Of a DNA stretch of 43,652 bases, positions 1 through 43,652 are shown piece by piece. This stretch comes from a virus. Where the stretch lies: UHGV virus genome UHGV-0201380; one strand, written 5' to 3'. The position numbers and the translations under genes were made by a program. How positions within the stretch are numbered: position 1 is the stretch's first letter; each line of letters begins with the position of its first letter. Below the pieces are notes generated by a model. It saw only the letters and a list, made by a program, of their open reading frames with translations. It did no database searches and was not told where the DNA came from.

Positions 1-72
1 ATGCTGCATACCGCGGGTCTATCGGCTCAGGCCCCAGGTCCATCAACTCCACAACACTGCCAGACTTTATAC

Positions 73-2490
73 TCATTCTACCTTCTCCTTACTGTACATA
101 CTCGTACCCATCTCAGCCTCTGCTGGGAACGGGACCTCACCAATGATGCCGTAGTTAGGCCAGAGCTGGTGAATACGCTTAGGTGCATCCTCCATGCACT
201 GCTTAACCAGCAGGCTCGCCTCACGTCCAACCTCCGGGTTGGCGCTGTCCAGATACAACGCATCGTGCACGTTCGTAATCAGGCACACCTGATTGTCGAA
301 CCAGTCACGGGCCAGGAGTGCACGCAGAACCATACCGGCGGCTACCGCCATCAGGAAGAATGCTTCCCCCTGGCACCAGTAGTTAGCCATCTCTGTTTCC
401 TTGTAGTCCATTACCTTCTGCTTACGCTGCCCAGGCACAACCTCTTTCCACTGCTCTTTCTGACGGAAACTGTAGCGGGCACCGGCTGGGCTGGTCCACG
501 TCCCAATGCGGTAGATTCGGTAGCTGCCGTCGTCAGCCTGCTCCCGGTACATGCGCCCCTCCGCACCGGTACGTTCTACCTCTTCCTTGACAACAGCGCG
601 GAAGCCAATTGTTTGCGGGAACAGCGCAGCCTCGTTGTCCAAGAAAGCCTGTGCAAATTCCACCGTACATCCAGTAGCAAACGCAATCCCCTTAGCCGTA
701 GCGCCATACTGGGCTGCAAAGCTAGGAGCCTTAATACCTGTACGCATTGCCTTCCAAAGCGGATGCAGCTCGTGCTTCTTGTTGTGGCAGCGCTCATATA
801 CTTCTTCATACGGTAATCCCTCGCGGAAAGCTAGGCGGTAACAGTGCATATCCGTACCACTCTGCAGCAGTCCCAGCAGTTTCTTGTCACCCGTGTGTAC
901 ACAGGACATAACCACTTCCAGTGCCGAGTAGTCAACCTCAGTGATACGTCCGTTGTCCCCGAATCTACTGGTGAACACCTGCTTCACCTTGGATTTAGCC
1001 ACACCGTCGCCATCCTCATCCGGGCGGGGTAGGTTCTGCAGGTTCGGGTTAGAGCTACTCAAGCGCCCGGTTACGGTGGCGCAAGTATTCAGCCGGTGGT
1101 GAATGATGCCGGAACCATCGGGACGCTCCGGGATTACATACTGCAGCATCCCCTTCCGCTCTTTTACATTACCTCCTGCGTCCAGTACTTCTCGCAAATA
1201 GTAAGTGCCGGTATCCTTCTCCAGCGCCGCCAGTTCGTTCACCAACTTACAGAACTCGAACCCTTGGCGAGCCAGCGCCTCCATTGCATCAGTGCTGGTG
1301 CTATACACAGGGGTGCCATCCTGCAGGGTGCGCGCCTGTCGGAACTCCCCGCGCTCTGCGTACTTCTCCCGGATAACTTCCGGAAGCTCCTGGATGTTCA
1401 CTAGGCCCGGGCAGAAGTAAAGGTCGTCTTCCCATTTAAGTTTCTCTTCCTCGGTATCGAGGCGGAATACTTTAGGGAGCCCCTTGTTCTTACCCGCACG
1501 ATATGTCACTACACGCCACCATCCGCCTTCCGTTTGAAGTTCTTGCATGTGCGTGTCGTGTACAGGTATATAGGTGTGCGCACCATCTTCGTCCTCGTAC
1601 TTATAGTAGTCGGCCTTGACGTACTGCGGAGGGTCATAGGGGACCTTCTTGCGGTACTTTATAGGCCCGCCGTACACCAGTGCAGACATATGAAAGTCCG
1701 ACCCGAAATTGAAGTCCAGCGTCTCCGGCAAGTCCTTCGGGATGTACTGCTGCAGTTCCTGCTTAATCTCACGGATGCGCTGCTCCTGCTCCTCCTGGTT
1801 CTTGCGTGCAATTGGCATATTCACGAACAGGCCGAACCACTCGCAGTACGCCCAAGCTAGCAAGGCATCCATACGTTCCCACACGTACTGCATCTGATTG
1901 CGCTGGGCGAACGTAGCGCACTGGCCGTAGAAGCACAGGGCCGTGTTCGGGATGTCCCCGTTAACCAGGTAGTCATGCAGCAGTATCGGGTCGATCTGGG
2001 AGGTTAACACACCCTGCTCCCATAGAATCTTAACCCCGTCTACTTTGTGCGTACCACCGTACTTAGGAGCCGTCTCGTCCAGAGACGGATACATGCTCTG
2101 AAAGTCCGAGGCGATGTATTCCCCGTGCATTGTGCAGAACACCCTGCCACCGCGCTTGAGGAAGGCCTCAAACTGCTGCCGCTGGTACGTGAGAAACCAA
2201 GAAATCTCATAGGCTGCGTTGTGCGCAACAATAAGCCAGCAATCCTCGGGGATATGAAACCACCGGCAGCCTTCTGCTGCACTGTTTCCCGCCAAGAAAT
2301 CAGCTCTTGAATTGAAGCGCACCGATTGAGTCGCGCCAACAGTGGTAGTACCGTCAGCCTGTGTCGTGTCGATACGCCATGCGGACTCAACAACATAGTT
2401 GTCAGGGCAGTATGGGCTTGCTTTAGAGCCGTAATATTCATGGTTCTCCGTCTCCAGGTCAAGGTGCATTATGCTGGTTGTCATTTCCAC
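73..2490 (-). CDS. Family A DNA polymerase (T7 gp5-like) with N-terminal 3'-5' exonuclease domain
   Basis: 805-aa track ORF. N-terminal MHLDLETEN resembles the exonuclease DxE motif; C-terminal VHDALYLD resembles Pol A motif C. Track start codon is GTG; an ATG two codons in (about 2484) follows a GGAGGG Shine-Dalgarno and is the likelier start. Position after primase and helicase matches phiKMV-like synteny. Confidence 0.9.
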   Translation of the reverse strand: MEMTTSIMHLDLETENHEYYGSKASPYCPDNYVVESAWRIDTTQADGTTTVGATQSVRFNSRADFLAGNSAAEGCRWFHIPEDCWLIVAHNAAYEISWFLTYQRQQFEAFLKRGGRVFCTMHGEYIASDFQSMYPSLDETAPKYGGTHKVDGVKILWEQGVLTSQIDPILLHDYLVNGDIPNTALCFYGQCATFAQRNQMQYVWERMDALLAWAYCEWFGLFVNMPIARKNQEEQEQRIREIKQELQQYIPKDLPETLDFNFGSDFHMSALVYGGPIKYRKKVPYDPPQYVKADYYKYEDEDGAHTYIPVHDTHMQELQTEGGWWRVVTYRAGKNKGLPKVFRLDTEEEKLKWEDDLYFCPGLVNIQELPEVIREKYAERGEFRQARTLQDGTPVYSTSTDAMEALARQGFEFCKLVNELAALEKDTGTYYLREVLDAGGNVKERKGMLQYVIPERPDGSGIIHHRLNTCATVTGRLSSSNPNLQNLPRPDEDGDGVAKSKVKQVFTSRFGDNGRITEVDYSALEVVMSCVHTGDKKLLGLLQSGTDMHCYRLAFREGLPYEEVYERCHNKKHELHPLWKAMRTGIKAPSFAAQYGATAKGIAFATGCTVEFAQAFLDNEAALFPQTIGFRAVVKEEVERTGAEGRMYREQADDGSYRIYRIGTWTSPAGARYSFRQKEQWKEVVPGQRKQKVMDYKETEMANYWCQGEAFFLMAVAAGMVLRALLARDWFDNQVCLITNVHDALYLDSANPEVGREASLLVKQCMEDAPKRIHQLWPNYGIIGEVPFPAEAEMGTSMYSKEKVE

Positions 2491-10966: not shown

Positions 10967-11383
10967 TCACTGGGAGCAAAAAGAGTAAGCAGACCCCCAA
11001 AGGTCTGCGTGCAGTAAACTATTGTAGTCCCCATAAGTCACGTCGAACTCTCGCCAGTTAGTATCGTACTCAGGACTAGCCAATAACTCATCCTTTGTGA
11101 AGCATCTCCCTTCCTGAATCTGTGCTAAGTGTATGGCCCGGTGAGTGTCAGCGCTAACCAGTATCAGGTTATTGAAGTCACAGTTAAGGCGGTTACTGTC
11201 ACAGTGATGTACGTGATAGCCAGAACCGTAGCTAGTGATTCCCAGAGCATCCATAACCACGGCCCTATGCAGCGCCACAGTCTTATAGTCTCTCTTACCT
11301 CGCTTATTCACATACTCAGGCCCAGCACCATTAATCACTGGATAACCTTCCTTATCAACCACAATCTTAAATGTTCTAGCCAC
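10967..11383 (-). CDS. HNH homing endonuclease
   Basis: 138 aa with HVHHCDSNRLNCDFNNLILVSADTHRAIH (HNH core). Free-standing, between the terminus repeat region and the early promoters. A GC hairpin plus T-run overlaps its last codons (about 10975..11008). Confidence 0.8.
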   Translation of the reverse strand: MARTFKIVVDKEGYPVINGAGPEYVNKRGKRDYKTVALHRAVVMDALGITSYGSGYHVHHCDSNRLNCDFNNLILVSADTHRAIHLAQIQEGRCFTKDELLASPEYDTNWREFDVTYGDYNSLLHADLWGSAYSFCSQ

Positions 11384-12205: not shown

Positions 12206-12667
12206 TCAGATATACACCTGCCCCGGGGTGAAGGCCTTGTGTTGCTCTTGACGTTTCTCTAGTACCCACTTGCAGATAACTTCGTAGGAGCTGTGCTTCT
12301 TCATGTAACGCTTACCGTCCTTCCAGAACTCCCCGCGCCAGCAGGTGCCAGTGTAGTATACACCCCTAGGATGTTCCCGCTTAGACCTGCGTGCGTTACA
12401 GTTGTTTTCGCTAACCGTAGCTAAGCGCAGGTTCTCTAATCTGTTGTCACCGGGGTTTTGGTTGATGTGGTCCACCACATATCCGTCTGGAATAGGCCCG
12501 TTGTGTAGTTCCCAGATGAGGCGGTGTGCCTGTATCTTTCTACCAGATACCTGTACCACCCAGTAGCCACGAGTGTTGCGGGTACCCGCTGGAGCACCGG
12601 CGCGCCTACCCTTGAGCCACACCAAGCAGCTAGGGGATGTTGTGTCATATTTGATGTTCATAGACAT
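12206..12667 (-). CDS. HNH homing endonuclease (HNH plus AP2-like DNA-binding region)
   Basis: 153 aa with HRLIWELHNGPIPDGYVVDHINQNPGDNRLENLRLATVSENNCNA. Last gene before the terminus region. The upstream intergenic region carries GTATCTCTA direct repeats. Confidence 0.85.
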   Translation of the reverse strand: MSMNIKYDTTSPSCLVWLKGRRAGAPAGTRNTRGYWVVQVSGRKIQAHRLIWELHNGPIPDGYVVDHINQNPGDNRLENLRLATVSENNCNARRSKREHPRGVYYTGTCWRGEFWKDGKRYMKKHSSYEVICKWVLEKRQEQHKAFTPGQVYI

Positions 12668-19656: not shown

Positions 19657-22600
19657 TTAATCGTCTCCGAAGTTATTGATGATAGCTCGCGTAGGTGCGA
19701 ATTCCTGGATTAACGGCACCTGCTTAGTGAAGGTCTTGATATCCATATTACCGGTAGCCAGGTCCTGCACAGCCCCAAGTAGTCCTGTGACGTAACCCAT
19801 AGATGCCAATGAGTGACGGGGAGAATCCCCCAGGAAGATATCCTGTAGTAAGGATACACCGCCAATGGCACTCATACCCATCACGGACTCACCGATGAGT
19901 TTCTGGGTGTCTACGTCCTTCCCATCCATACCGTGCTTAGCCATAGTAGCCAGTAGCATCAGCGGGAATTGATACGCCATAATATGGGCTACGCCAATCC
20001 ACCCAGCGTCGCTCAGCTCCCTACGCAGAATCTTGTTAGTGGCGGCCAGTGCGAAGCTCTGGTACCCTACAATGACTTTGCCGATAGGGTTGAACTGTGC
20101 AAAGTGTGAGGTCTCTCCAGTACGAACCTGCTGTACCAGGTAGTCCATCATACGCGTCCCTACAACCTCAACTTGCATTTGCAGGTCCGGCTGGAACATG
20201 GCGCCCGGGTTGGCTTTGTTGGCAGCGATGGCACGGTCAGCAACGTCGCGGGTAAGCCCGAAACGCTCCAGACGCTTAAACGCCGCAGCATCACCCTTGA
20301 ACATCTGGGTAAGCTCATCCGCCACAATGCCGGAGTTCAGGTTAACCTGCAGCCGGTGCACCATGCTCATACCGTTGACGTGACGCGCAGCCTGCCCAAC
20401 GTTCTGGGTTACATTGAACCAAGAGGCCTGACGGGTCAGGTCCAGGTTATCGTCGGCGTACGTATTCAACCAGCGGAAGCGCATCTCCTTCTGGATATTA
20501 CCTCGCAGTACAGTGTCTAGACGGGTAGCCATATCCGGAGTCTTGATAGCTACGGCACCTTCCTTGAACCAAGGCTGGTCACGCATACTACGCAGCACTC
20601 TAGCCATACCGAACTCCTTCATAGCCAGGGCAGTGTCAGTCAGCTGATACAGGCCGGAGTTCTTAAGCATGGTGGCGTTAGCCATGTTCCCGGCTGCACG
20701 CAGCAAATCCGGAAGCTGTCCGGCGTCAGCAGGCGCCCCACCCAGGATAAAGTCGATGGTGTCATTGACTGTCTTCTCCCACTTAGCGGAATCCGCCAGT
20801 GCGTGCTTAGACTCATCAATCATCTTAGCTAGCTGGCCCAGGTCCTGTACGCCTGCATAGGCCATGCCTACACGCCCAGACATACGGTTAGTGTACCCGT
20901 GCATAACCTTGGCTACATCAGTATCCATCAGGTCCTGCATGCGCATGCTCTTACCGTTCACCAGATACTCTTTGTCCATGTTGAACCGAGTACGCTGACG
21001 CAGGTTCCGCGCAGGGGATGTGCTACCGGATTCGCGTACGTTACCAGCCAGGAAACTCTGGATTGCAGATTCATCTACACCAGCGCTACGCATAGCCATA
21101 ACGACCTCGTCGTTACCCATGCCGTTAATCAGCTGCTTCCACATCGGGCCGGACTGCCCTGCACGGCCGTTGTAGATACCGTCAACCATCTCCTTTGCAA
21201 CACGCTGCACTACCTCTGACTCCATGCTCGGGTACACGTCCCGCAGGGCGGACCTGAACAGGGCGCGGTAGTCGTCCAGAGTGTTACCCTGCGCAATACC
21301 TTGGCGCATCTTGTCGTAGCTGTACTGACGCGGGAAGTAGTAATCGGATTTAACCAACGCACCATCATCCACTAGACCAGCATTGAGCATATGCTCGTGC
21401 CACTTGCCTGCCCAGCCAGAGCGGCGATAGGCGTCAACCAGTGGGGCAATCTCTGCATCCGGTACGGGAACAGCTCGGCCGTTTACATCAGCACTGTAGG
21501 CAGCATCCAGGTACTTGCTCAGGCGGTCTTCCAGTGCAGCCCGCTCAGCGCGGAACTTGCTCCGATGGAAGAAGCGCTCAGAGAAACCTACACCCTTATC
21601 CTTCAACGCGCCCAGGATAGCGTCTTCCACTACGCTAGCGCTGGCGTCCATCTCCAAAGTGAGGTTGCGCTTGAAGTCCACTACAGACGGGCGACGGCCG
21701 CCTACTGCGGACGCATCCGACACTAGCAGTTTAGCCAAGTCTTCATTGCCTTGAGCGATGTTATCGTACAGGGCAAACATAGTAGAGAGCTTCTTCTTAG
21801 CGCCATCCAGCATAGCTTGGGCACCCTTAGCCTCGTTTAGGGTAGTGCTGCCCGCCAGGTCCTGGAAGGCTTCACTACGGAAGCCCTGGGCTTGGTCTGC
21901 ATAATCCTTAGCTGTCCACTTAACGGCGTCCTCGTACGCATCCAAGACATCTTCCAAGGCAGAACCTTTGGCCTTGATGCCCAGGGCATTCATGATGTAC
22001 TCGCCCAGTTGGCGGAGCATGCTCTTACCGGTTGGGGATTTCGTCCGCGCCAGATGCTCAACCCACTCAGGGCTGTCACCTAAGCCTGCCAGCATCTCGT
22101 GCACATTACTAGCGTAATACCGCATACGCGGCGTCAAGGTGGAGTCCGCTGCAATAACAGCGCGCACTTCATCCAGGCGCTTAGCAATCTCTGGGTTACT
22201 GTCAACGGCGCGCGCAGTGGCGGCATGAATCAGTTCGTGCACGGCTACCCTGCTTGTGTCTGCATCCATAGCACGCAGTGCGTCCCCTGCTGTAGTCCAT
22301 GTGCTGCCATTAGCTCGCTTAGGTGCGCGTAGAGACACCTCTCCACGCTTAGCTAAATCTTGCTGTGCGTAAGTGTAGCGGCTGCGGTTTGCGGAGCCTG
22401 CTACCAGTTTAAAATCAATGTCATTTACAGCATCGCCCAGCGTGTCCAGAATAGCCTTCTGGCCTGCTGTTAAGTGTTCGGACTTCTTCAAGAACTGAAC
22501 TACGTGCTGTGCTTTCATGTTCACGGAGGCGGTATTGTTTCTAGATACTTGGATGCTTTCATCCAGTGTCTTAGTAAGGATTTCCTCTCCCTCTCCTACT

Positions 22601-37136: not shown

Positions 37137-37592
37137 TCACTTGGCGTCAATGCACTTACCTCTGTGTTGCTCGTATAGTTCTGAGTACTTGTCGGACTTG
37201 GCAATGTCTTGTTCCAGCTTATCCTTGTTCCCGGCGCGCAGTCTGTACTTGAGCCGGTTCCCCAGGCAGTATCCGTAGAACTGCTCTTTCGTCATACTGC
37301 GTGCAATCACCTCAATTGCCTCCAGGTCCGGGAAGAACTGGTAGTGCTTGGGTGAGTTCACTGCGTCGGGCGCTTGTGTGCTGGTTATGGGGACTTCCCC
37401 CACTACATGGAAGTAGTCCGCGCGCCAACCGCCAGCTAGGTCTCCGCTTAGTGTAATTGTGGTGCCACTAACCTCAAGCACCCCCCTGGAGGCGTATGGG
37501 GAGATATGAAGAGACTCGCAGATTCGAGACCAGTCACCCGACACGTGCGTAGCTTTACGAACTACCACATCACCAACTTTAATATTACTCAT
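37137..37592 (-). CDS. Hypothetical protein, DUF3310-like conserved T7-group protein
   Basis: 151 aa; C-terminal region NSPKHYQF ... EAIEVIA ... GNRLKYRLRAGNK resembles the DUF3310 pattern. Start overlaps the endonuclease VII stop (ATGA). Confidence 0.55.
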   Translation of the reverse strand: MSNIKVGDVVVRKATHVSGDWSRICESLHISPYASRGVLEVSGTTITLSGDLAGGWRADYFHVVGEVPITSTQAPDAVNSPKHYQFFPDLEAIEVIARSMTKEQFYGYCLGNRLKYRLRAGNKDKLEQDIAKSDKYSELYEQHRGKCIDAK

Positions 37593-38032
37593 TTAATAGT
37601 CTCCCGTGCTTTACGTCGTGCCCGGGCCTTGCGGGCCTTGAGCTTCTGTGCCTGCGCCAATTCTTCCGGCGTCTTGTGCGTATAGTATAGCATATCCGTA
37701 GGTTCGCGGTCTAAGTAATCGGCGACCCTACGTAGAGATTCAGCAATAGCCCCAGAAGATTGCATGCTACCAACAATCCAGCGCCCAGCGGCAGATGCCA
37801 CTTTGCCTTCCCCTCCATTGCACGAGCGATGAAGAGCACCCCGAATACGCCCAGTAATATGATCGTGGTCAACGACAACAGAATCACCAGTTACCCCCTT
37901 GATTGTGAAGTCCAAAGGTTTGCCACAAAGGAGGCAGATACCTCCCTGGTCTTTGGCAAGCTTAATTGCCACGGAGCGAATCTGTGCCCGTGTAATCTTC
38001 CGCAGACTCATACGTATATGAACCCCCACCAT
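37589..38032 (-). CDS. Endonuclease VII-type Holliday junction resolvase
   Basis: 147 aa with CLLCGKPLD ... VVDHDHITGRIRGALHRSCNGGEGK (zinc-binding and DHDH motifs of the T4 endo VII family); basic C-terminal tail. Confidence 0.85.
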   Translation of the reverse strand: MVGVHIRMSLRKITRAQIRSVAIKLAKDQGGICLLCGKPLDFTIKGVTGDSVVVDHDHITGRIRGALHRSCNGGEGKVASAAGRWIVGSMQSSGAIAESLRRVADYLDREPTDMLYYTHKTPEELAQAQKLKARKARARRKARETIK

Positions 38033-39632: not shown

Positions 39633-40006
39633 TATATACCCTCCAGTTCAGATAGCACCAACACGGTGCCAAGCATGTCCCCGATTACTTCCGTGGTACG
39701 CAGGCTCTGGTCTACGTCGTAGATGCAGGAACCAATCTCCGCCAGCCCGATGCTTAGGGTACCCACAATGCGGATAAGCACTAGGTCATCACCCCGTAAC
39801 TTATCGGCATGTGCCGCCAGGTCATTGTGCTCCTTGAAGGCGGTAGCAGCCAACTCCAGGTCCATGCCGTACAGGGCCGCCAGCTTGTCCAGAGCATCGT
39901 ACACAGCGCCGAGCTGGTCACCATTGTCGAAACCTTGAACGGCGCTACAGTTCACGTAACCTACAGCCAGAACCAGTTTCTTGTATGCGTCTAGTACTTT
40001 GTCCAT
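39632..40006 (-). CDS. Hypothetical protein
   Basis: 124-aa ORF in a translationally coupled string of middle genes. Confidence 0.5.
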   Translation of the reverse strand: MDKVLDAYKKLVLAVGYVNCSAVQGFDNGDQLGAVYDALDKLAALYGMDLELAATAFKEHNDLAAHADKLRGDDLVLIRIVGTLSIGLAEIGSCIYDVDQSLRTTEVIGDMLGTVLVLSELEGI

Positions 40007-40284
40007 TAGTCAAATCCTTTCAATTTGTGTTTTGAAATGAAATTGTGGGCTTTGGTCTCAGTGGCCGTAGCCTCTGCACCCAGGGCGTATGCACGGCGTC
40101 GGGACTTGGCGCACTGGCGAGTCAAGTGATAGCGGTGTGCGCTAATCTCGGCACCCAGAAGGCTTGCCCTGTGTGCGTGAGAATTAGCTGCCCGGTGCCA
40201 GTCATTTGCTCGCTTCTGCAAACGCTGTGCACGCAGAAGCAGAAACACAGCGTACTGTTCTTTGGCCCATGTGATTATGCGCAT
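40006..40284 (-). CDS. Hypothetical basic protein
   Basis: 92-aa ORF, Arg/His-rich. Confidence 0.5.
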   Translation of the reverse strand: MRIITWAKEQYAVFLLLRAQRLQKRANDWHRAANSHAHRASLLGAEISAHRYHLTRQCAKSRRRAYALGAEATATETKAHNFISKHKLKGFD

Positions 40285-40539
40285 TTATACCTCCAGGAAG
40301 TTAGCTACTTCATCACGCTTAGCGCGCAGGTTATCAGCATGGCAAGCGCACGCCTCGGCTAACTCTTTGCTATGCTTGGATGCCTCTACGCGCGCCTCGG
40401 ATTGAGCGGCCAGACGCACTGCGTCGTCTGCGAATTTAACTGACAACTGCTCGTTAAACTGCGCTTTGGCATCGGCGCGTTTAGCTTCTGCTGTGTAGGC
40501 TGCGCTCAGGAGTTTGATGAGAATCTTGATGATGTTCAT
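40285..40539 (-). CDS. Hypothetical protein
   Basis: 84-aa ORF, Ala/Lys/Glu-rich and probably helical. Preceded by a GC hairpin and a GAGGAAG Shine-Dalgarno. Confidence 0.5.
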   Translation of the reverse strand: MNIIKILIKLLSAAYTAEAKRADAKAQFNEQLSVKFADDAVRLAAQSEARVEASKHSKELAEACACHADNLRAKRDEVANFLEV

Positions 40540-40548
40540 AGGCTTCCT

Positions 40549-40567
40549 CTAAGGCCCCTAGGAGGGG
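40549..40567 (-). promoter_or_regulatory. Intergenic GC-rich hairpin (possible RNA processing or stability element)
   Basis: Minus strand GGCCCCT-CCT-AGGGGCC: 7-bp perfect stem with 3-nt loop, between the 262-aa gene stop and the next Shine-Dalgarno. No U-tract, so not a canonical terminator. Confidence 0.3.
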
Positions 40568-40592
40568 CCGTATTAGTTTAGGTTAGGGTTGA

Positions 40593-41381
40593 TTAGGCTT
40601 GAGGTGCGGCGGGTGCTGCTGGCGCCACAGGGGCTGCAGGGGCCACTGGTGCAGCCGGGGCTGCGGGTGCCTGCATAGCTGCCGGACTAGGAACCGAGCC
40701 AGCGTTCAGCAGAATATCCAGAGCACTGCCAGGGAAGTCTACAGCCTTGTACATATCCTCCTGAATCCAGTTCTTGCTCTTACCATCGTCGAAGGTGCCT
40801 TCGATGTGCAGGCTATCCCAGGTCTCTTTGGTTGGGTTGTTCCACAGGAACAGCTTAATCTCAGAGGCATCCATGGCAGGCATCTTGATAGGCTCGCCAG
40901 TGTTCGGGTCGAATTTCGGAATCGGGCGGATACCGGACAGGTCCACGATGTTGGACTTCTTGCCCGCGGCGCTGGTGTGCTCATCAATCGGGAAGGTGAA
41001 GGCCTGGCCCAGACGCTGTGCTGCATGCTTAATGCTATTGTCGTAGTTGAGCTTGTCGAAGAACTTCTTGAAGCCTGCGCGCTCAAAGTTACTGATAGCC
41101 ATCGGGAACGGGCGGATACGCTTCACTTCGCCGTTAGGACCGAACACTACAATGCCGATGCGTACGTTAGCTACTGCGGGCTTACCGGTCGGCTTGCCAC
41201 CCTTAGTCGGCAGGCGCTTACCGATTTCTACGTACTCGGTGAAGTAGCCGTAGTATTCACCCTTCGGCAGCAGCACGTCCTCATATGCGCCGCCCTGTGC
41301 GGTTTCCCGCATATCTACATCTTGGGTTCCGATTGCTGCGTCTACCAGAGCGTTCAGGGATGCCAATACATTCGTAGTCAT
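40593..41381 (-). CDS. Hypothetical protein with Pro/Ala-repeat C-terminal tail
   Basis: 262 aa; C-terminus PAAMQAPAAPAAPVAPAAPVAPAAPAAPQA is low-complexity. Lys/Gly-rich central region. No catalytic motif recognised. Confidence 0.55.
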   Translation of the reverse strand: MTTNVLASLNALVDAAIGTQDVDMRETAQGGAYEDVLLPKGEYYGYFTEYVEIGKRLPTKGGKPTGKPAVANVRIGIVVFGPNGEVKRIRPFPMAISNFERAGFKKFFDKLNYDNSIKHAAQRLGQAFTFPIDEHTSAAGKKSNIVDLSGIRPIPKFDPNTGEPIKMPAMDASEIKLFLWNNPTKETWDSLHIEGTFDDGKSKNWIQEDMYKAVDFPGSALDILLNAGSVPSPAAMQAPAAPAAPVAPAAPVAPAAPAAPQA

Positions 41382-41402
41382 ATAATTACGTCCTCGTTTA
41401 GT

Positions 41403-41972
41403 TTAAATGATATTTACGTGCAGATGCAGGGCTATGCGTTTGCACAGTCCTACGAAGTCATCGTGGTGCATGTCAGACTTCATATAGTTGCAGGTAGGGC
41501 AGCATGGCACACAGTTGTCTAAATGGTACCCAATGCGTGAATCCTTCCGGTCTATCCCGTTAGTGGGTACTGTGGATTTACGCGCCCATCTCCCACTGCC
41601 GAGTTCCCGGTAGGTACTGGGTGGCGCGCCGCAGTAATAACAATCTGCGCTTACTAAGGCCTTGGCGTCTTCCTTAGTAATACTCCTACCTAACTTAGTG
41701 CTAAAGGCCCATACCTTATTCGCCGATACTGTTAAGTCGTCCAGCTTATTAGGCGGAGTTCGTCCAGTATTCTTCTCACTTTGCCTGAGTTTAGTTTGAC
41801 ATCCGCAGTGACCAAGGCCGCCGCGCTTACTGGTATTGAATAGCTTAGTGCGTATCGCCTCAAACTCCTCGCCACAGTAAGGGCAGTCCCAGGTATAAAC
41901 AACCATACCGCGGAATCTCTTTCCTGTATCAGTCTTTGGTTTTATCTCTTGCACACCACCTTCCGGAATCAT
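41403..41972 (-). CDS. Zinc-finger protein with degenerate HNH-like nuclease motif
   Basis: Track ORF starts at TTG 41975, with an ATG at about 41972; an alternative ATG at about 41906 avoids overlap with the phosphoesterase gene. CPYCGEEF and HCGCQ Cys pairs; C-terminal NGIDRKDSRIGYHLDNCVPCCPTCNYMK resembles an HNH core with His replaced. Confidence 0.45.
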   Translation of the reverse strand: MIPEGGVQEIKPKTDTGKRFRGMVVYTWDCPYCGEEFEAIRTKLFNTSKRGGLGHCGCQTKLRQSEKNTGRTPPNKLDDLTVSANKVWAFSTKLGRSITKEDAKALVSADCYYCGAPPSTYRELGSGRWARKSTVPTNGIDRKDSRIGYHLDNCVPCCPTCNYMKSDMHHDDFVGLCKRIALHLHVNII

Positions 41973-42918
41973 CAAGCAGCATCGGGATTAACTGCGGACA
42001 GCCCTCGGTGATTACCATCACACCCAGGATTGGTTTCTTGCGGGTGAGTCTGCCGTAAGCAAAGGCCATGCTCTTACGGTCAATCAGACACCCAGCATAC
42101 GCACCAAAGTACAAAGCTGTTGAGCTAGCTGCATATTGCACCTCAAAGCGACCATGTTCGTGACCAAGGACAAGGCTGGTTCTTTCGTGGCTAGCGTTGA
42201 GCATGAAGTCACCCGACACTTGATGCTGGAATCTAACCGGGCCAAGTGGGGTATTGAGTACCCATGCGTCAGCCCAAGACCACGCCGGGGCACCATGCTC
42301 AGGGAAAAGTATATCTCGGTACTTCTTGATGAATTGCACTGGTAGCCCGTGAGCTTTCGCCCTGCGGTAAACCAGACTGCCGTGATTGGAATCGCAAACC
42401 AGTAGGTTCGGGAATAGTTCATGCAGCTCCTCCAGTACGAGCTTGGCTTTCTCCAGCTCCACCCCGGCGCTATCTAGGTTCGGGTTACTTTCGTGGAATG
42501 ATATAGCGTGGCCGTCCGTCTCGTCGCCTACCTGTACAACCATGTCCGGACAGTAGGCGTCTCGCACAGATTCTAAGAAGGCCATAGCATCTACGTGCGT
42601 ATAGGGGGCATGCAAATCCCCAACTACGAGAATACGGTGGCACACTTCCGGCACGAAGGTTTTGCCGATGTCATCAGTGGGACTGGGCTGTATGAGCTTT
42701 AGTGCCTCCTTCATGTGGGATATTGCCTTACCCTTGCTCCCAGCGTGGTCTAGGAATATGCTGCGCCAGTACTTCACCATCTGTCGATACACCACTGGCT
42801 CGTCCAGTCCCGCCAGATTATTATAGGCGGCAGCAGCATCCACGTTAGAGCTGTGCTTGCTCAAGATATCTATGTGTTGCTCTTTGGTGAATAGCTTTAT
42901 TGTGTTTAACTTAGGCAT
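41929..42918 (-). CDS. Calcineurin-like metallophosphoesterase (Ser/Thr protein phosphatase / phosphodiesterase superfamily)
   Basis: 329 aa with the ordered motifs VVGDLHAPY (GDxH), VQVGDETDGH (GDxxD), CDSNHGS (GNH[DE]-like) and LGHEHGRF (GH-x-H). Substrate cannot be assigned. Confidence 0.8.
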   Translation of the reverse strand: MPKLNTIKLFTKEQHIDILSKHSSNVDAAAAYNNLAGLDEPVVYRQMVKYWRSIFLDHAGSKGKAISHMKEALKLIQPSPTDDIGKTFVPEVCHRILVVGDLHAPYTHVDAMAFLESVRDAYCPDMVVQVGDETDGHAISFHESNPNLDSAGVELEKAKLVLEELHELFPNLLVCDSNHGSLVYRRAKAHGLPVQFIKKYRDILFPEHGAPAWSWADAWVLNTPLGPVRFQHQVSGDFMLNASHERTSLVLGHEHGRFEVQYAASSTALYFGAYAGCLIDRKSMAFAYGRLTRKKPILGVMVITEGCPQLIPMLLDDSGRWCARDKTKD

Positions 42919-43345
42919 TCCAGCTCCTGTTACTTATTACGTCACTAATTACATGTACACCTACACCGTACTTATTAGCAAAGTGTTGCCGCATACCTTT
43001 CTTGTATGGGATATAGTTATCCCTGATATCCTGCACAGCATCCCAAGTTAACTGCGCTTTTGGGTTCCTATCCCCACGCACATCTGGGTTCCTTCCGCGC
43101 TCTGCACGGTCCCGCATATTATCCATATGCGTTCCCAATACTAAGTGCTTAGGGTTAATGCACCTGGGGTTATCGCAGGTATGTCTAACAGACAGGCCAG
43201 CCAGCGCCCTTATATCCAGCCCGTTATGCTCAGCATACACCACCCGATGCAGCAGCTCCAATCGCCTGGTCGGCTTATACCATGCCCGGCGGTATCCGTT
43301 CTTGTTAAGGCATTTGTTATACCCGTGGTCAATACACATCGACAT
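42911..43345 (-). CDS. HNH homing endonuclease
   Basis: 144 aa with HRVVYAEHNG ... HTCDNPRCINPKHLVLGTHMDNM. Overlaps the phosphoesterase start by 8 nt. Confidence 0.85.
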   Translation of the reverse strand: MSMCIDHGYNKCLNKNGYRRAWYKPTRRLELLHRVVYAEHNGLDIRALAGLSVRHTCDNPRCINPKHLVLGTHMDNMRDRAERGRNPDVRGDRNPKAQLTWDAVQDIRDNYIPYKKGMRQHFANKYGVGVHVISDVISNRSWNA

Positions 43346-43506
43346 TCGGTATCCTCTTGTGTTGTTCCTACTCGTATCACATTAATTCTCTGTGAATCAC
43401 AGAATCAAGCTAGAGTCAACAAATAATTTTATTTAATTATTTAGTTGACCCCAGTGTATTTCCATGCTACCCTAACCCCCTACACCACCCAAGGGTCCAC
43501 CTATCA

Positions 43507-43652
43507 CTATTCCACGATAAGCTTGTACTCCCCCGGGAAGAAGGTAACACCATCCCCCGGTCTACTTACTACTAGTCCAGGATAACTTAGTTCTATCTCC
43601 CCAGTAACCGGGTCGAAGAACATGACCGTGTGCCTCGTACCCGGGGCGAAGT
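43507..43652 (-). CDS. 3' portion of a small ORF truncated at the window edge (continues at 1..43 if the sequence is circular)
   Basis: The minus-strand frame is open from the window end to a TAG at about 43507. The same frame continues through the revcomp of positions 1..72 to an ATG at about 43..41 (GGAG upstream), giving a 65-aa ORF directly downstream of the DNA polymerase stop. Confidence 0.3.
   Translation of the reverse strand, partial: FAPGTRHTVMFFDPVTGEIELSYPGLVVSRPGDGVTFFPGEYKLIVE

Follow-up and report, generated by a model that had tools for sequence, protein, structure and literature searches.

A Drulisvirus metallophosphoesterase gene, probably of DNA metabolism, bordered at each end by unrelated putative homing-endonuclease genes

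The region at 41403-43345 of the virus genome UHGV-0201380, analysed here as a window of 43,652 nucleotides, probably consists of one conserved DNA-metabolism gene, encoding a metallophosphoesterase (MPE), each end of which has been colonised by an unrelated selfish homing-endonuclease gene (HNH1 and HNH2). Judged from sequence profiles and a structural model, the MPE resembles a DNA nuclease more closely than it does a protein phosphatase or an enzyme that destroys signalling nucleotides. A phosphoesterase flanked by HNH genes is in itself an ordinary arrangement, and its members are of known kinds. The features of the region are as follows.

42911 to 43345, minus strand: HNH1, putative free-standing homing-endonuclease gene of the HNH_3 (His-Me finger) type, 144 aa
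41929 to 42918, minus strand: MPE, metallophosphoesterase, 329 aa; core gene of the replication/recombination block
42637 to 42918, minus strand: MPE residues 1-94, an N-terminal extension
42618 to 42616, 42612 to 42610 and 42525 to 42523, minus strand: MPE codons for D101, H103 and D132
42387 to 42382, 42225 to 42223 and 42162 to 42154, minus strand: MPE codons for N178/H179, H232 and H253/H255
41403 to 41954, minus strand: HNH2, putative homing-endonuclease gene of the PacI-type His-Me finger class, 183 aa from the GTG at 41954
41552 to 41550, 41549 to 41547, 41528 to 41526, 41516 to 41514 and 41489 to 41487, minus strand: HNH2 key codons for D, R, Y, N and N
42793 to 43353, minus strand: HNH1 cassette, 561 nt, from blastn breakpoints against the HNH1-free genome Kp_Pokalde_001
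41434 to 41968, minus strand: HNH2 cassette, 535 nt, from blastn breakpoints against RCIP0044, a per-100-nt identity profile and junction sequences
41286 to 41405, minus strand: SNP-dense flank downstream of HNH2, from the mismatch list and identity profile against RCIP0044
41971 to 42001, minus strand: short SNP cluster upstream of HNH2, within the MPE 3' end, from mismatches against RCIP0044

The window is a circularly permuted genome of a Drulisvirus (KP34-like Klebsiella phage), and all three ORFs lie on its minus strand and overlap, as a sequence-only reading of this DNA had proposed. The HNH1 stop and the MPE start share 8 nt (42911-42918); the MPE begins at an ATG, and its ribosome-binding site AGGAG sits within the last codons of HNH1. 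The maximal HNH2 ORF spans 41403-41975 from a TTG at 41975, and an ATG at 41906 would give 167 aa; the most likely start is the GTG at 41954, and the overlap with the MPE 3' end measures 26 nt from this GTG or 47 nt from the TTG. The placement of the trio after the DNA polymerase, also proposed before, holds because of the circular permutation: window positions 1-2484 and 41969-43652 align to adjacent coordinates of RCIP0044 (18321 and 18322), and the order in KpV71 (DNA polymerase, small ORF, HNH, MPE) agrees. The earlier count of three clear HNH genes plus one more stands, the other two HNH_3 genes being at 12206-12667 (E 3.9e-22) and 10967-11383 (E 1.8e-7), and only the description of the additional one, HNH2, as degenerate fails. 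An Rfam search of 40000-43652 (E up to 1) returned no match, and a promoter/terminator scan found sites no more numerous than in shuffled sequence, which gives no ground for a promoter upstream of HNH1.

The MPE matches phrog_221 'metallo-phosphoesterase' with an E of 7e-106 and Pfam Metallophos barely above threshold (21.6 bits against a cut-off of 21.5). Its superfamily motifs, D101-L-H103, G131-D132-E-T-D135, S-N178-H179-G, H232 and G252-H253-E-H255, represent the calcineurin-like set (DxH, GDxxD, GNH(D/E), H, GHxH). Across a 99-sequence family alignment, D132, E154, N178, H179, H232, H253 and H255 do not vary, and conservation is 90% or more at D101, H103 and D135; therefore all canonical metal-binding motifs are present, in line with the sequence-only reading, and the enzyme keeps a complete two-metal active site. 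The AF2 model (pLDDT 90.4) shows the beta-sandwich MPE fold, preceded by an extension of helices at residues 2-9, 12-21, 25-36, 45-57 and 62-74 and then a low-confidence linker. Pfam gave no match on this extension; the equivalent part of other family members is a DNA-binding Pfam domain, HTH or HNH_repeat, and the comparison with the HTH-bearing relatives is weak (hhalign E 0.004, probability 8%). The extension is probably a DNA-binding or partner-binding module. Inteins were found inside motifs I and II in homologues of the MPE.

On sequence-profile comparisons, the MPE and mycobacteriophage Bxb1 gp47 belong to one lineage of phage MPEs. The family profile aligned with gp47 over 199 columns, the whole catalytic domain, at 97% and an E of 7.9e-11 in hhalign, where shuffled controls gave E values of 0.1-0.3. 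SbcD and CpdA aligned over 43 and 44 columns respectively, covering the first motifs (I-II) only, and YfcE gave no match. The structural model is nearest to nuclease and phosphodiesterase MPEs, with the proofreading exonuclease PolD DP1 as the best match, whereas lambda phosphatase ranks 57th. Bxb1 gp47 is needed for DNA replication, and its exonuclease activity is weak, with contamination not excluded (PMC11795197). One paper describes gp47 as without phosphoesterase activity and its cluster-A homologue A10ZJ24 gp48 as a phosphodiesterase/DNase that degrades host DNA (PMC12287305); a loss of host defence gene expression has been reported for this breakdown.

The gene context likewise belongs to DNA metabolism. 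The MPE occurs in 643 phage records, always inside the replication/recombination block, and is a syntenic core gene of KP34-like, SP6/K1-5-like and phiAS7-like Autographiviridae (several subfamilies), highly conserved at 70% identity or more across genera. In Drulisvirus it follows the DNA polymerase; in Vectrevirus and Aerosvirus it lies between endonuclease VII and a nucleotide kinase and adjoins an exonuclease; in Vectrevirus a ligase gene follows a few genes further downstream. The neighbouring kinase of Vectrevirus mutPK1A2 is annotated as T7 gp1.7-like, and its counterpart in the window carries Pfam DUF3310; T7 gp1.7 is a dNMP kinase. Literature searches for functional studies of this MPE (Drulisvirus, KP34 or Autographiviridae) returned genome-annotation papers only.

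Taken with its relatives, the MPE is probably a Mn2+/Mg2+-dependent DNA phosphodiesterase acting as an exonuclease, an endonuclease or both, which its helical N-terminal domain would steer towards DNA or a partner in the replisome. It could serve phage DNA replication and recombination, the breakdown of the host chromosome, or both. Host-chromosome breakdown would feed the gp1.7-type nucleotide kinase, and expression of host defence genes could fall as a side effect, as for A10ZJ24 gp48. One specific role, that of a proofreader acting in trans, finds no support in the phage DNA polymerase, whose N-terminus by eye contains an ExoI-like DLE (DxE) and an ExoII-like NAAYE; since the polymerase appears to keep its own ExoI motif, such a helper is not obviously needed. 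A broader proposal, possible but rather doubtful, is that the MPE and gp47 families form a widespread, unrecognised, phage-specific lineage of DNA-targeted metallonucleases delivered by interchangeable N-terminal HTH modules. A member of this lineage would be either a trans-acting replisome nuclease, the bacterial-virus counterpart of archaeal PolD DP1, or a host-chromosome shredder, and shredding, if true, would also shut down inducible defences.

Other activities are compatible with the superfamily and were weighed against DNA cleavage. An unlikely one is end healing, in which the MPE would be a 3'-phosphatase or a 2',3'-cyclic phosphodiesterase modelled on the phosphatase module of bacterial Pnkp, working alongside the kinase encoded next to it (and, in certain phages, a ligase) to mend cuts made by anticodon nucleases and the like. 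The gp1.7-like character of that kinase suits nucleotide salvage better, no ligase adjoins the MPE in the window, PnkP falls far below DP1, YfcE, SbcD and Mre11 in the structural ranking, and DNA is the substrate of the closest characterised relatives, gp47 and gp48.

Somewhat more improbable is a phosphodiesterase directed against immune signalling nucleotides (cyclic di- or oligonucleotides, or molecules of the cADPR type). The structural neighbours YfcE, MJ0936, Rv0805 and GpdQ are small-substrate phosphodiesterases, the active site is intact and the sequence excludes no small-molecule substrates; in a strict sense it is true, as was stated earlier, that sequence does not reveal the substrate. 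Against this, known anti-defence genes are usually accessory and variable, and the MPE gene is core, syntenic and highly conserved among replication genes. Moreover, PADLOC and NCBIfam gave no match for the MPE, Metallophos was its only Pfam class, leaving none that would tie it to signal-degrading enzymes, the CpdA alignment stops after the first two motifs, and relatives carry the DNA-binding HTH or HNH_repeat domains. The takeover or anti-defence roles suggested from the sequence, through degradation of signalling nucleotides or dephosphorylation of host proteins, are accordingly less likely for a core replication-block gene that is related to gp47 and has a nuclease/phosphodiesterase-like fold.

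The gene upstream of the MPE, HNH1, is a predicted HNH_3 endonuclease of the T7 gp5.3/7.7 type, and its earlier description as a free-standing HNH endonuclease is borne out. It matches Pfam HNH_3 (E 2.1e-9, 37.3 bits against a cut-off of 24.8), zf-His_Me_endon (1.9e-6), phrog_6254 'HNH endonuclease' (E 1.8e-25) and the PADLOC model 'HEase' (7.5e-7). Its core follows the H...N...N pattern (RHTCDN...NPKHL...HMDN), and it shares 33% identity with T7 gp7.7 and also aligns with T7 gp2.8.

HNH2 gives a different profile, with a match to phrog_1035 at an E of 1.5e-26, only an E of 0.18 for Pfam HNH and no match in NCBIfam or PADLOC. Its N-terminus carries a zinc ribbon (CxxC...CxC), and its core reads CYYCG...GIDRKDSRIGYHLDNCVPCCPTCNYMK, in which Asp-Arg takes the place of Asp-His. 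This replacement is invariant across 60 diverse homologues, as are C89, Y91, G117-I-D-R120, Y127, N131, C135, C136, N140 and K143 (167-aa numbering); all metal- and zinc-binding residues are among the invariant positions, and the candidate catalytic Tyr is conserved. The family profile also matches PacI at an E of 2.2e-8 with the core residues aligned. PacI is an active nuclease without the catalytic His, in which Tyr replaces His as the general base (PMC5714182, PMC4081073). HNH2 is, on these alignments, a PacI-type His-Me finger (group 20) with a conserved variant core rather than the degenerate HNH core for which it had been taken. Genes of the HNH2 type are now labelled 'endonuclease VII', 'HNH endonuclease' or 'hypothetical'.

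The distribution of the two genes among relatives differs from that of the MPE. In 386 records with an MPE at least 60% identical, HNH1 is present in 17 and HNH2 in about 17, while roughly 350 have neither and none has both; every one of the HNH1 orthologues (at least 88% identity) is at the same site. RCIP0044 has HNH1 and lacks HNH2, and Kp_Pokalde_001 has HNH2 and lacks HNH1. The synteny check recommended with the earlier reading thus finds both HNH genes sporadic and never together. The HNH1 insertion, as defined by breakpoints against the more distant Kp_Pokalde_001 genome only, comprises HNH1 plus ~42 codons from the start of the MPE where that genome has 134 nt: window positions 43560-43354 align directly upstream of the Kp_Pokalde_001 MPE ribosome-binding site, and the alignment resumes at 42792.

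The HNH2 cassette is resolved more closely, as identity to RCIP0044 around it is 100% in most 100-nt bins and 96-100% in all, on both sides. Its 535 nt stand in place of 211 nt of RCIP0044, which hold the final ~10 codons of the MPE together with a membrane ORF of 55 aa, and a substitute C-terminus for the MPE comes with the cassette (SGRWCARDKTKD, then stop). The displaced ORF was considered as a decayed remnant of HNH2 and rejected, since its product, a Trp-rich membrane peptide, does not resemble HNH2. The 120 nt downstream of HNH2 (41286-41405) contain 26 differences from RCIP0044, and the 860 nt beyond them are 100% identical; the SNP-dense stretch resembles a co-conversion tract that extends into the beginning of the next gene (40593-41381). 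Upstream, 4 differences in the 31 nt of 41971-42001 are possibly a patch of co-conversion or of target-site immunity. In VLCpiA1m, the primary insertion of HNH2 can be seen within the 3' end of the MPE gene, and the tail displaced from the MPE (GRWVGRSK, then stop) serves there as the C-terminus of HNH2. Judged from these alignments, the swap of HNH2 within a ~99% identical block with SNP-dense flanks is the pattern that a homing event leaves. The whole genome is mosaic relative to RCIP0044 (87-99% identity), and ordinary recombination rather than endonuclease-driven homing could therefore have delivered HNH2.

HNH1 and HNH2, present or absent independently among relatives, appear to behave as selfish homing-endonuclease genes. 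During co-infection, HNH1, with its classical HNH_3 site, and HNH2, with Tyr for His, would cut endonuclease-free alleles near the MPE 5' and 3' ends respectively, and repair from the endonuclease-carrying genome would then copy them in. Damage to the MPE may be limited by HNH1 through the ribosome-binding site that it supplies for the MPE, and by HNH2 through the replacement C-terminal tail. PacI-type, Tyr-dependent His-Me fingers would then be genuine homing endonucleases of tailed phages.

It is very unlikely, in comparison, that the three genes form one functional unit with the HNH proteins as partners or specificity subunits of the MPE, or that HNH2 is a domesticated, non-catalytic DNA-binding protein. 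The tight gene overlaps do suggest translational coupling, and HNH2 does lack the canonical catalytic His. However, taking the overlapping trio for a functional one conflicts with the many records that keep the MPE without either HNH gene and with the independent occurrence of the two HNH genes, and the MPE of Vectrevirus and Aerosvirus sits in a different neighbourhood without HNH genes. The Asp-Arg/Tyr arrangement of HNH2 corresponds to the active PacI configuration, and its invariant metal and zinc ligands also argue against domestication.

KP34-like phages (Drulisvirus) are among the most used candidates against Klebsiella pneumoniae, and the MPE is annotated in hundreds of genomes. The combined profile and fold link to gp47/gp48 yields the hypothesis of a Mn-dependent DNA nuclease in the replication or host-takeover programme, and argues against reporting the MPE as a phosphatase or an anti-signalling enzyme. 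Genes of the HNH2 type would be better annotated as PacI-type His-Me fingers. The region shows, at nucleotide resolution, a probable homing-endonuclease gene entering the 3' end of a host gene with a replacement C-terminus, and both ends of the MPE gene are natural insertion-tolerant sites for phage engineering.

Among known enzymes, the Ser/Thr/Tyr protein phosphatase lambda NinI (lambda PPase) belongs to the same superfamily and aligns with the MPE profile over motifs I-III (hhalign 66% probability, E 5.5e-5), but a protein phosphatase that reprograms host phosphoproteins is highly improbable, because this alignment spans 74 columns where that with gp47 spans 199, the MPE has GDETDGH and SNHG in place of the PPP signatures GDxVDRG and GNHE, and the gene context is DNA metabolism. 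For PolD DP1 and Mre11/SbcD, the sequence relation to the MPE stops at motifs I-II, and unlike these enzymes the MPE has no evident OB fold, bound DP2 catalytic subunit, or Rad50 or SbcC partner. Mre11-type enzymes have the signatures GDLFH and GNHD, from which GDExDxH (motif II) and SNHG (motif III) of the MPE differ. The cluster-A mycobacteriophage MPEs (Bxb1 gp47, L5/D29 gp54, A10ZJ24 gp48) are, like the MPE, calcineurin-like proteins (~230-255 residues) encoded among replication genes. Bxb1 gp47 shares the C-terminal GCLID...AFxY region with the MPE family, and inteins occur at conserved MPE motifs in both, those of the gp47/RDF family being described in PMC5050341. The two proteins are only ~22% identical, motif I reads D-x-H in the window MPE and D-T-Q in gp47, and the 94-residue helical N-terminal domain is absent from gp47. 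Drulisvirus is regarded as a strictly lytic podovirus lineage; a role as recombination directionality factor (RDF), like that of gp47, is therefore unlikely for the MPE.

Of the flanking genes, HNH1 is comparable to the T7 gp5.3/gp7.7/gp2.8-type HNH_3 endonucleases and to I-HmuI-like homing endonucleases, being a small free-standing gene in a T7-like phage, within the class II region, and it differs in its site, directly before and overlapping the MPE. PacI and HNH2 share the core CxYCG...GxDRxDSxxGY...N...CxxCNxxKS, with Asp-Arg, the conserved Tyr (Omega-loop), the Asp/Asn metal site and the Cys4 zinc site. PacI is a restriction enzyme, whereas HNH2 is a phage gene that seems to behave as a free-standing homing endonuclease and has in addition the N-terminal zinc ribbon and a GxxFxxLxV strand. 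His-Me finger group 20, to which PacI belongs (Jablonska et al. 2017), was described mainly from giant viruses, and HNH2 comes from a tailed phage. The free-standing homing endonucleases of T-even phages, with their SegG-, MobE- and I-TevIII-type behaviour, belong to other endonuclease families and use another host gene. Features in common are a patchy occurrence at one fixed locus, within conserved genes or between them, presence/absence polymorphism in near-identical genomes and, for HNH2 as judged from its SNP-dense flanks, co-conversion of flanking markers.

The sequence-only reading described an overlapping trio of HNH endonuclease (HNH1), metallophosphoesterase (MPE) and HNH-like (HNH2) genes, all of which are present among the open reading frame (ORF) calls, and its count of HNH genes is confirmed by two further HNH_3 genes.

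42911-43345, minus strand: HNH1, 144 aa; Pfam HNH_3 passed (E 2.1e-9), phrog_6254 (E 1.8e-25)
41929-42918, minus strand: MPE, 329 aa; phrog_221 (E 7e-106)
41403-41975, minus strand: maximal ORF of HNH2; phrog_1035 (E 1.5e-26)
12206-12667, minus strand: further HNH_3 gene (Pfam E 3.9e-22)
10967-11383, minus strand: further HNH_3 gene (Pfam E 1.8e-7)
73-2490, minus strand: DNA polymerase

T7 gp7.7 shares 33% identity with HNH1. The MPE barely passes Pfam Metallophos (21.6 bits against a cut-off of 21.5) and has no match in NCBIfam or PADLOC, and HNH2 does not pass Pfam HNH (E 0.18). The HNH1 stop and the MPE ATG overlap by 8 nt, with the AGGAG ribosome-binding site of MPE located within the last HNH1 codons. 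With endonuclease VII (37589-38032) added, the His-Me finger proteins of this genome total five.

The window (43.6 kb) is a complete, circularly permuted Drulisvirus genome (KP34-like; Autographiviridae, Slopekvirinae) of a Klebsiella phage, with its genes running on the minus strand. The trio region is matched by 263 phage records, 233 of which are Klebsiella phages. Since window 1-2484 and 41969-43652 align to the related phage RCIP0044 at adjoining coordinates (18321 / 18322), the window ends are contiguous in the real genome. The trio thus lies just after the polymerase, as had been proposed, and KpV71 shows the same order of DNA polymerase, small ORF, endonuclease and metallo-phosphoesterase. 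When window 1-76 is joined to 43445-43652, both ends fall inside the small ORF after the polymerase (the homologue of KpV71 gp20), and ORF 1-816 (plus strand) in the ORF list is spurious. At the polymerase N-terminus (1291-2490, minus strand), Pfam finds the family A polymerase domain only (residues 382-797), and reading by eye picks out HLDLETE (ExoI-like), HNAAYE (ExoII-like) and YLVNGD (possibly ExoIII); the polymerase probably retains a divergent proofreading domain.

HNH1 orthologues (at least 88% identity) stand directly before MPE in 17 records only, and HNH2 (at least 60% identity) follows MPE in about 17. RCIP0044 carries HNH1 and lacks HNH2, and Kp_Pokalde_001 (Pokalde) carries HNH2 and lacks HNH1. 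The two record lists share no member, and the combination in the window is therefore new to the collection. HNH1 and HNH2 being sporadic among relatives, the three genes do not hold together as a functional trio; HNH1 and HNH2 behave as mobile homing-endonuclease genes.

From 43652 to 40424, the window is 96-100% identical to RCIP0044 in all 100-nt bins except around HNH2, where 211 nt are replaced by 535 nt (41968-41434). The downstream flank (41405-41286) carries 26 SNPs in 120 nt, beyond which identity returns to 100%, and the upstream flank (42001-41971) carries 4. The replacement with its SNP flanks resembles the pattern expected from gene conversion begun at a double-strand break. Ordinary recombination could also have delivered HNH2, as the two genomes are mosaic elsewhere (87-96% identity). 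The adjoining SNP-dense tract includes the first ~30 codons of a gene (40593-41381, minus strand) for a 262-aa phrog_862 protein with a low-complexity tail PAAPAAPVAPAAPVAPAAPAAPQA at its end, variously annotated as 'single strand DNA binding protein', 'large tegument protein' or hypothetical.

Phage VLCpiA1m keeps what looks like the primary HNH2 insertion. Its cassette lies inside the MPE 3' end and provides a substitute MPE tail (SGRWCARDKTKG, then stop), and its HNH2 ends through the displaced original tail (GRWVGRSK, then stop), whose nucleotides match the RCIP0044 MPE 3' end. The downstream ORF, which normally follows MPE, is retained.

RCIP0044 20051-20218 and VLCpiA1m 2087-2281: Trp-rich, strongly hydrophobic ORF of 55-64 aa (MKMGICSVLGLIFVTLKL...WSWLWVLLPFWG)

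The old MPE tail and this small ORF are deleted in the window, Pokalde and K24PH164C1, in which HNH2 terminates in former intergenic DNA (...IALHLHVNII, then stop). The Trp-rich ORF is dispensable, because the window lacks it.

The supposed degeneracy of HNH2 does not hold. Its core, CxYCG...NGIDRxDSxxGY...NCVPCCxxCNYMK, is invariant in 60 diverse homologues, with Asp-Arg at the position of Asp-His in classical HNH enzymes; PacI is an active nuclease that uses an Omega-loop tyrosine instead of a catalytic histidine, and defines group 20 of the His-Me finger superfamily, known mostly from giant viruses (PMC5714182, PMC4081073). HNH2 most likely starts at GTG 41954, giving a predicted 183 aa, because the homologue cluster P0270 (89% identical) and the VLCpiA1m orthologue, each 183 aa, start at the equivalent codon and the conserved GKRFxxMxV strand falls upstream of ATG 41906. 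No cluster in a 5.8-billion-sequence protein collection exceeds 89% identity to HNH2, whereas its flanking DNA is ~99% identical to a sequenced phage; the donor of the allele is still unsequenced. Providencia phage vB_PstP_PS3 (MK387869.1, 11157-11273) matches only HNH2 residues 28-66, the zinc-ribbon part (69% identity), and may be what is left of an HNH2-type gene after decay.

The MPE gene was found by tblastn in 643 phage records (386 at least 60% identical). They belong to Drulisvirus, to Vectrevirus (SP6/K1-5-like), to Aerosvirus (phiAS7) and to podoviruses infecting Pectobacterium, Pseudomonas, Vibrio, Proteus and Yersinia. Among 1.84 billion cluster representatives, searched exhaustively, 1,539 clusters matched at E <=1e-3. 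In Vectrevirus and Aerosvirus the MPE gene sits in a run of exonuclease, endonuclease VII, MPE and nucleotide kinase, which in Vectrevirus is followed a few genes later by a ligase; in Drulisvirus it comes after the polymerase. From this distribution and context, MPE belongs to the core genes of the DNA replication/recombination block and not to the variable early genes. In Escherichia phage K1E it appears as two ORFs, A0A2I4Q1Z7 (104 aa, N-terminal domain) and A0A2I4Q1Y4 (237 aa, catalytic domain), which could be truly split or could result from a frameshift or a sequencing error.

An alignment of 99 sequences shows no variation at D132, E154, N178, H179, H232, H253 and H255 and almost none at D101, H103 and D135, and the two-metal site is complete. 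The catalytic core spans residues ~95-323, and many homologues consist of it alone (230-245 aa). In many members the N-terminal extension is either an HTH recognised by Pfam (HTH_23, HTH_3, psq, HTH_24, Sigma70_r4_2) or a 'homing endonuclease associated repeat'. The N-terminal domain of the window MPE, whose putative role is suggested by analogy with these, has five predicted helices and no significant HTH match. Inteins occupy motif II (GDE/C[YF]P...GN/CD.H) in homologues P0124, P0126 and P0176, and motif I (DLH/CVPTY...TGN/CPYHH) in P0178, including a LAGLIDADG_3 domain. With inteins at two active-site positions, the gene thus attracts both inteins and free-standing HNH genes; inteins are also known from the gp47/RDF family, where they sit at a conserved MPE motif (PMC5050341). 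A 637-aa protein of Proteus phage vB_PmiP_RS8pmA was noted among the intein-type homologues.

No solved structure related to MPE was detectable by sequence or by profile. Matches were ranked with its AF2 model, and the family profile was aligned by hhalign to single reference sequences, with shuffled controls.

Placement of MPE by structure (score) and by profile
Structure, PolD DP1 3'-5' proofreading exonuclease: 15.3 (218 residues aligned)
Structure, YfcE phosphodiesterase: 15.0
Structure, MJ0936 phosphodiesterase: 15.0
Structure, DNA polymerase delta B-subunit: 12.7
Structure, LpxH: 12.6
Structure, SbcD: 12.6
Structure, Mre11: 12.3
Structure, lambda phosphatase: 9.9 (rank 57)
Profile, Bxb1 gp47: 97%, E 7.9e-11, 199 columns (whole domain, including the C-terminal GCLID...AFxY block)
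Profile, lambda NinI: 66%, E 5.5e-5, 74 columns
Profile, E. coli SbcD: 16%, E 1.6e-3, 43 columns
Profile, E. coli CpdA: 15%, E 1.8e-3, 44 columns
Profile, E. coli YfcE: no match
Profile, shuffled controls: E 0.1-0.3

The gp47 family is the sole close lineage with experimental study, and our literature search found no functional study of MPE in Autographiviridae. Bxb1 gp47 is the recombination directionality factor of that phage. A10ZJ24 gp48, its homologue from cluster A, is a phosphodiesterase: in vitro it breaks down linear DNA, plasmids and genomic DNA, in vivo it harms the chromosome of the host, and killing of M. tuberculosis depends on it (PMC12287305). Degradation of signalling nucleotides or dephosphorylation of proteins, suggested earlier as takeover or anti-defence roles and compatible with the sequence, is disfavoured by the gene context, the core-gene status, the gp47 relationship, the DNA-binding fusions in homologues and the structural ranking. 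We infer that MPE is most likely a metal-dependent DNA phosphodiesterase acting in replication/recombination and/or host-DNA breakdown.

Each component is of a known kind, and the structural description given by the sequence-only reading holds. HNH1 is an HNH_3 endonuclease, MPE is a calcineurin-like enzyme of the gp47-related phage lineage, and HNH2, judged by its conserved core, is a PacI-type His-Me finger with an added N-terminal zinc ribbon that would serve as a free-standing homing endonuclease. What is new is limited to four things: one MPE gene is seen for the first time with both endonuclease genes beside it, the way in which HNH2 inserts is clearly visible, the Autographiviridae MPE is linked to the gp47 family, which had gone unremarked, and HNH2-type phage genes are recognised as PacI-like.
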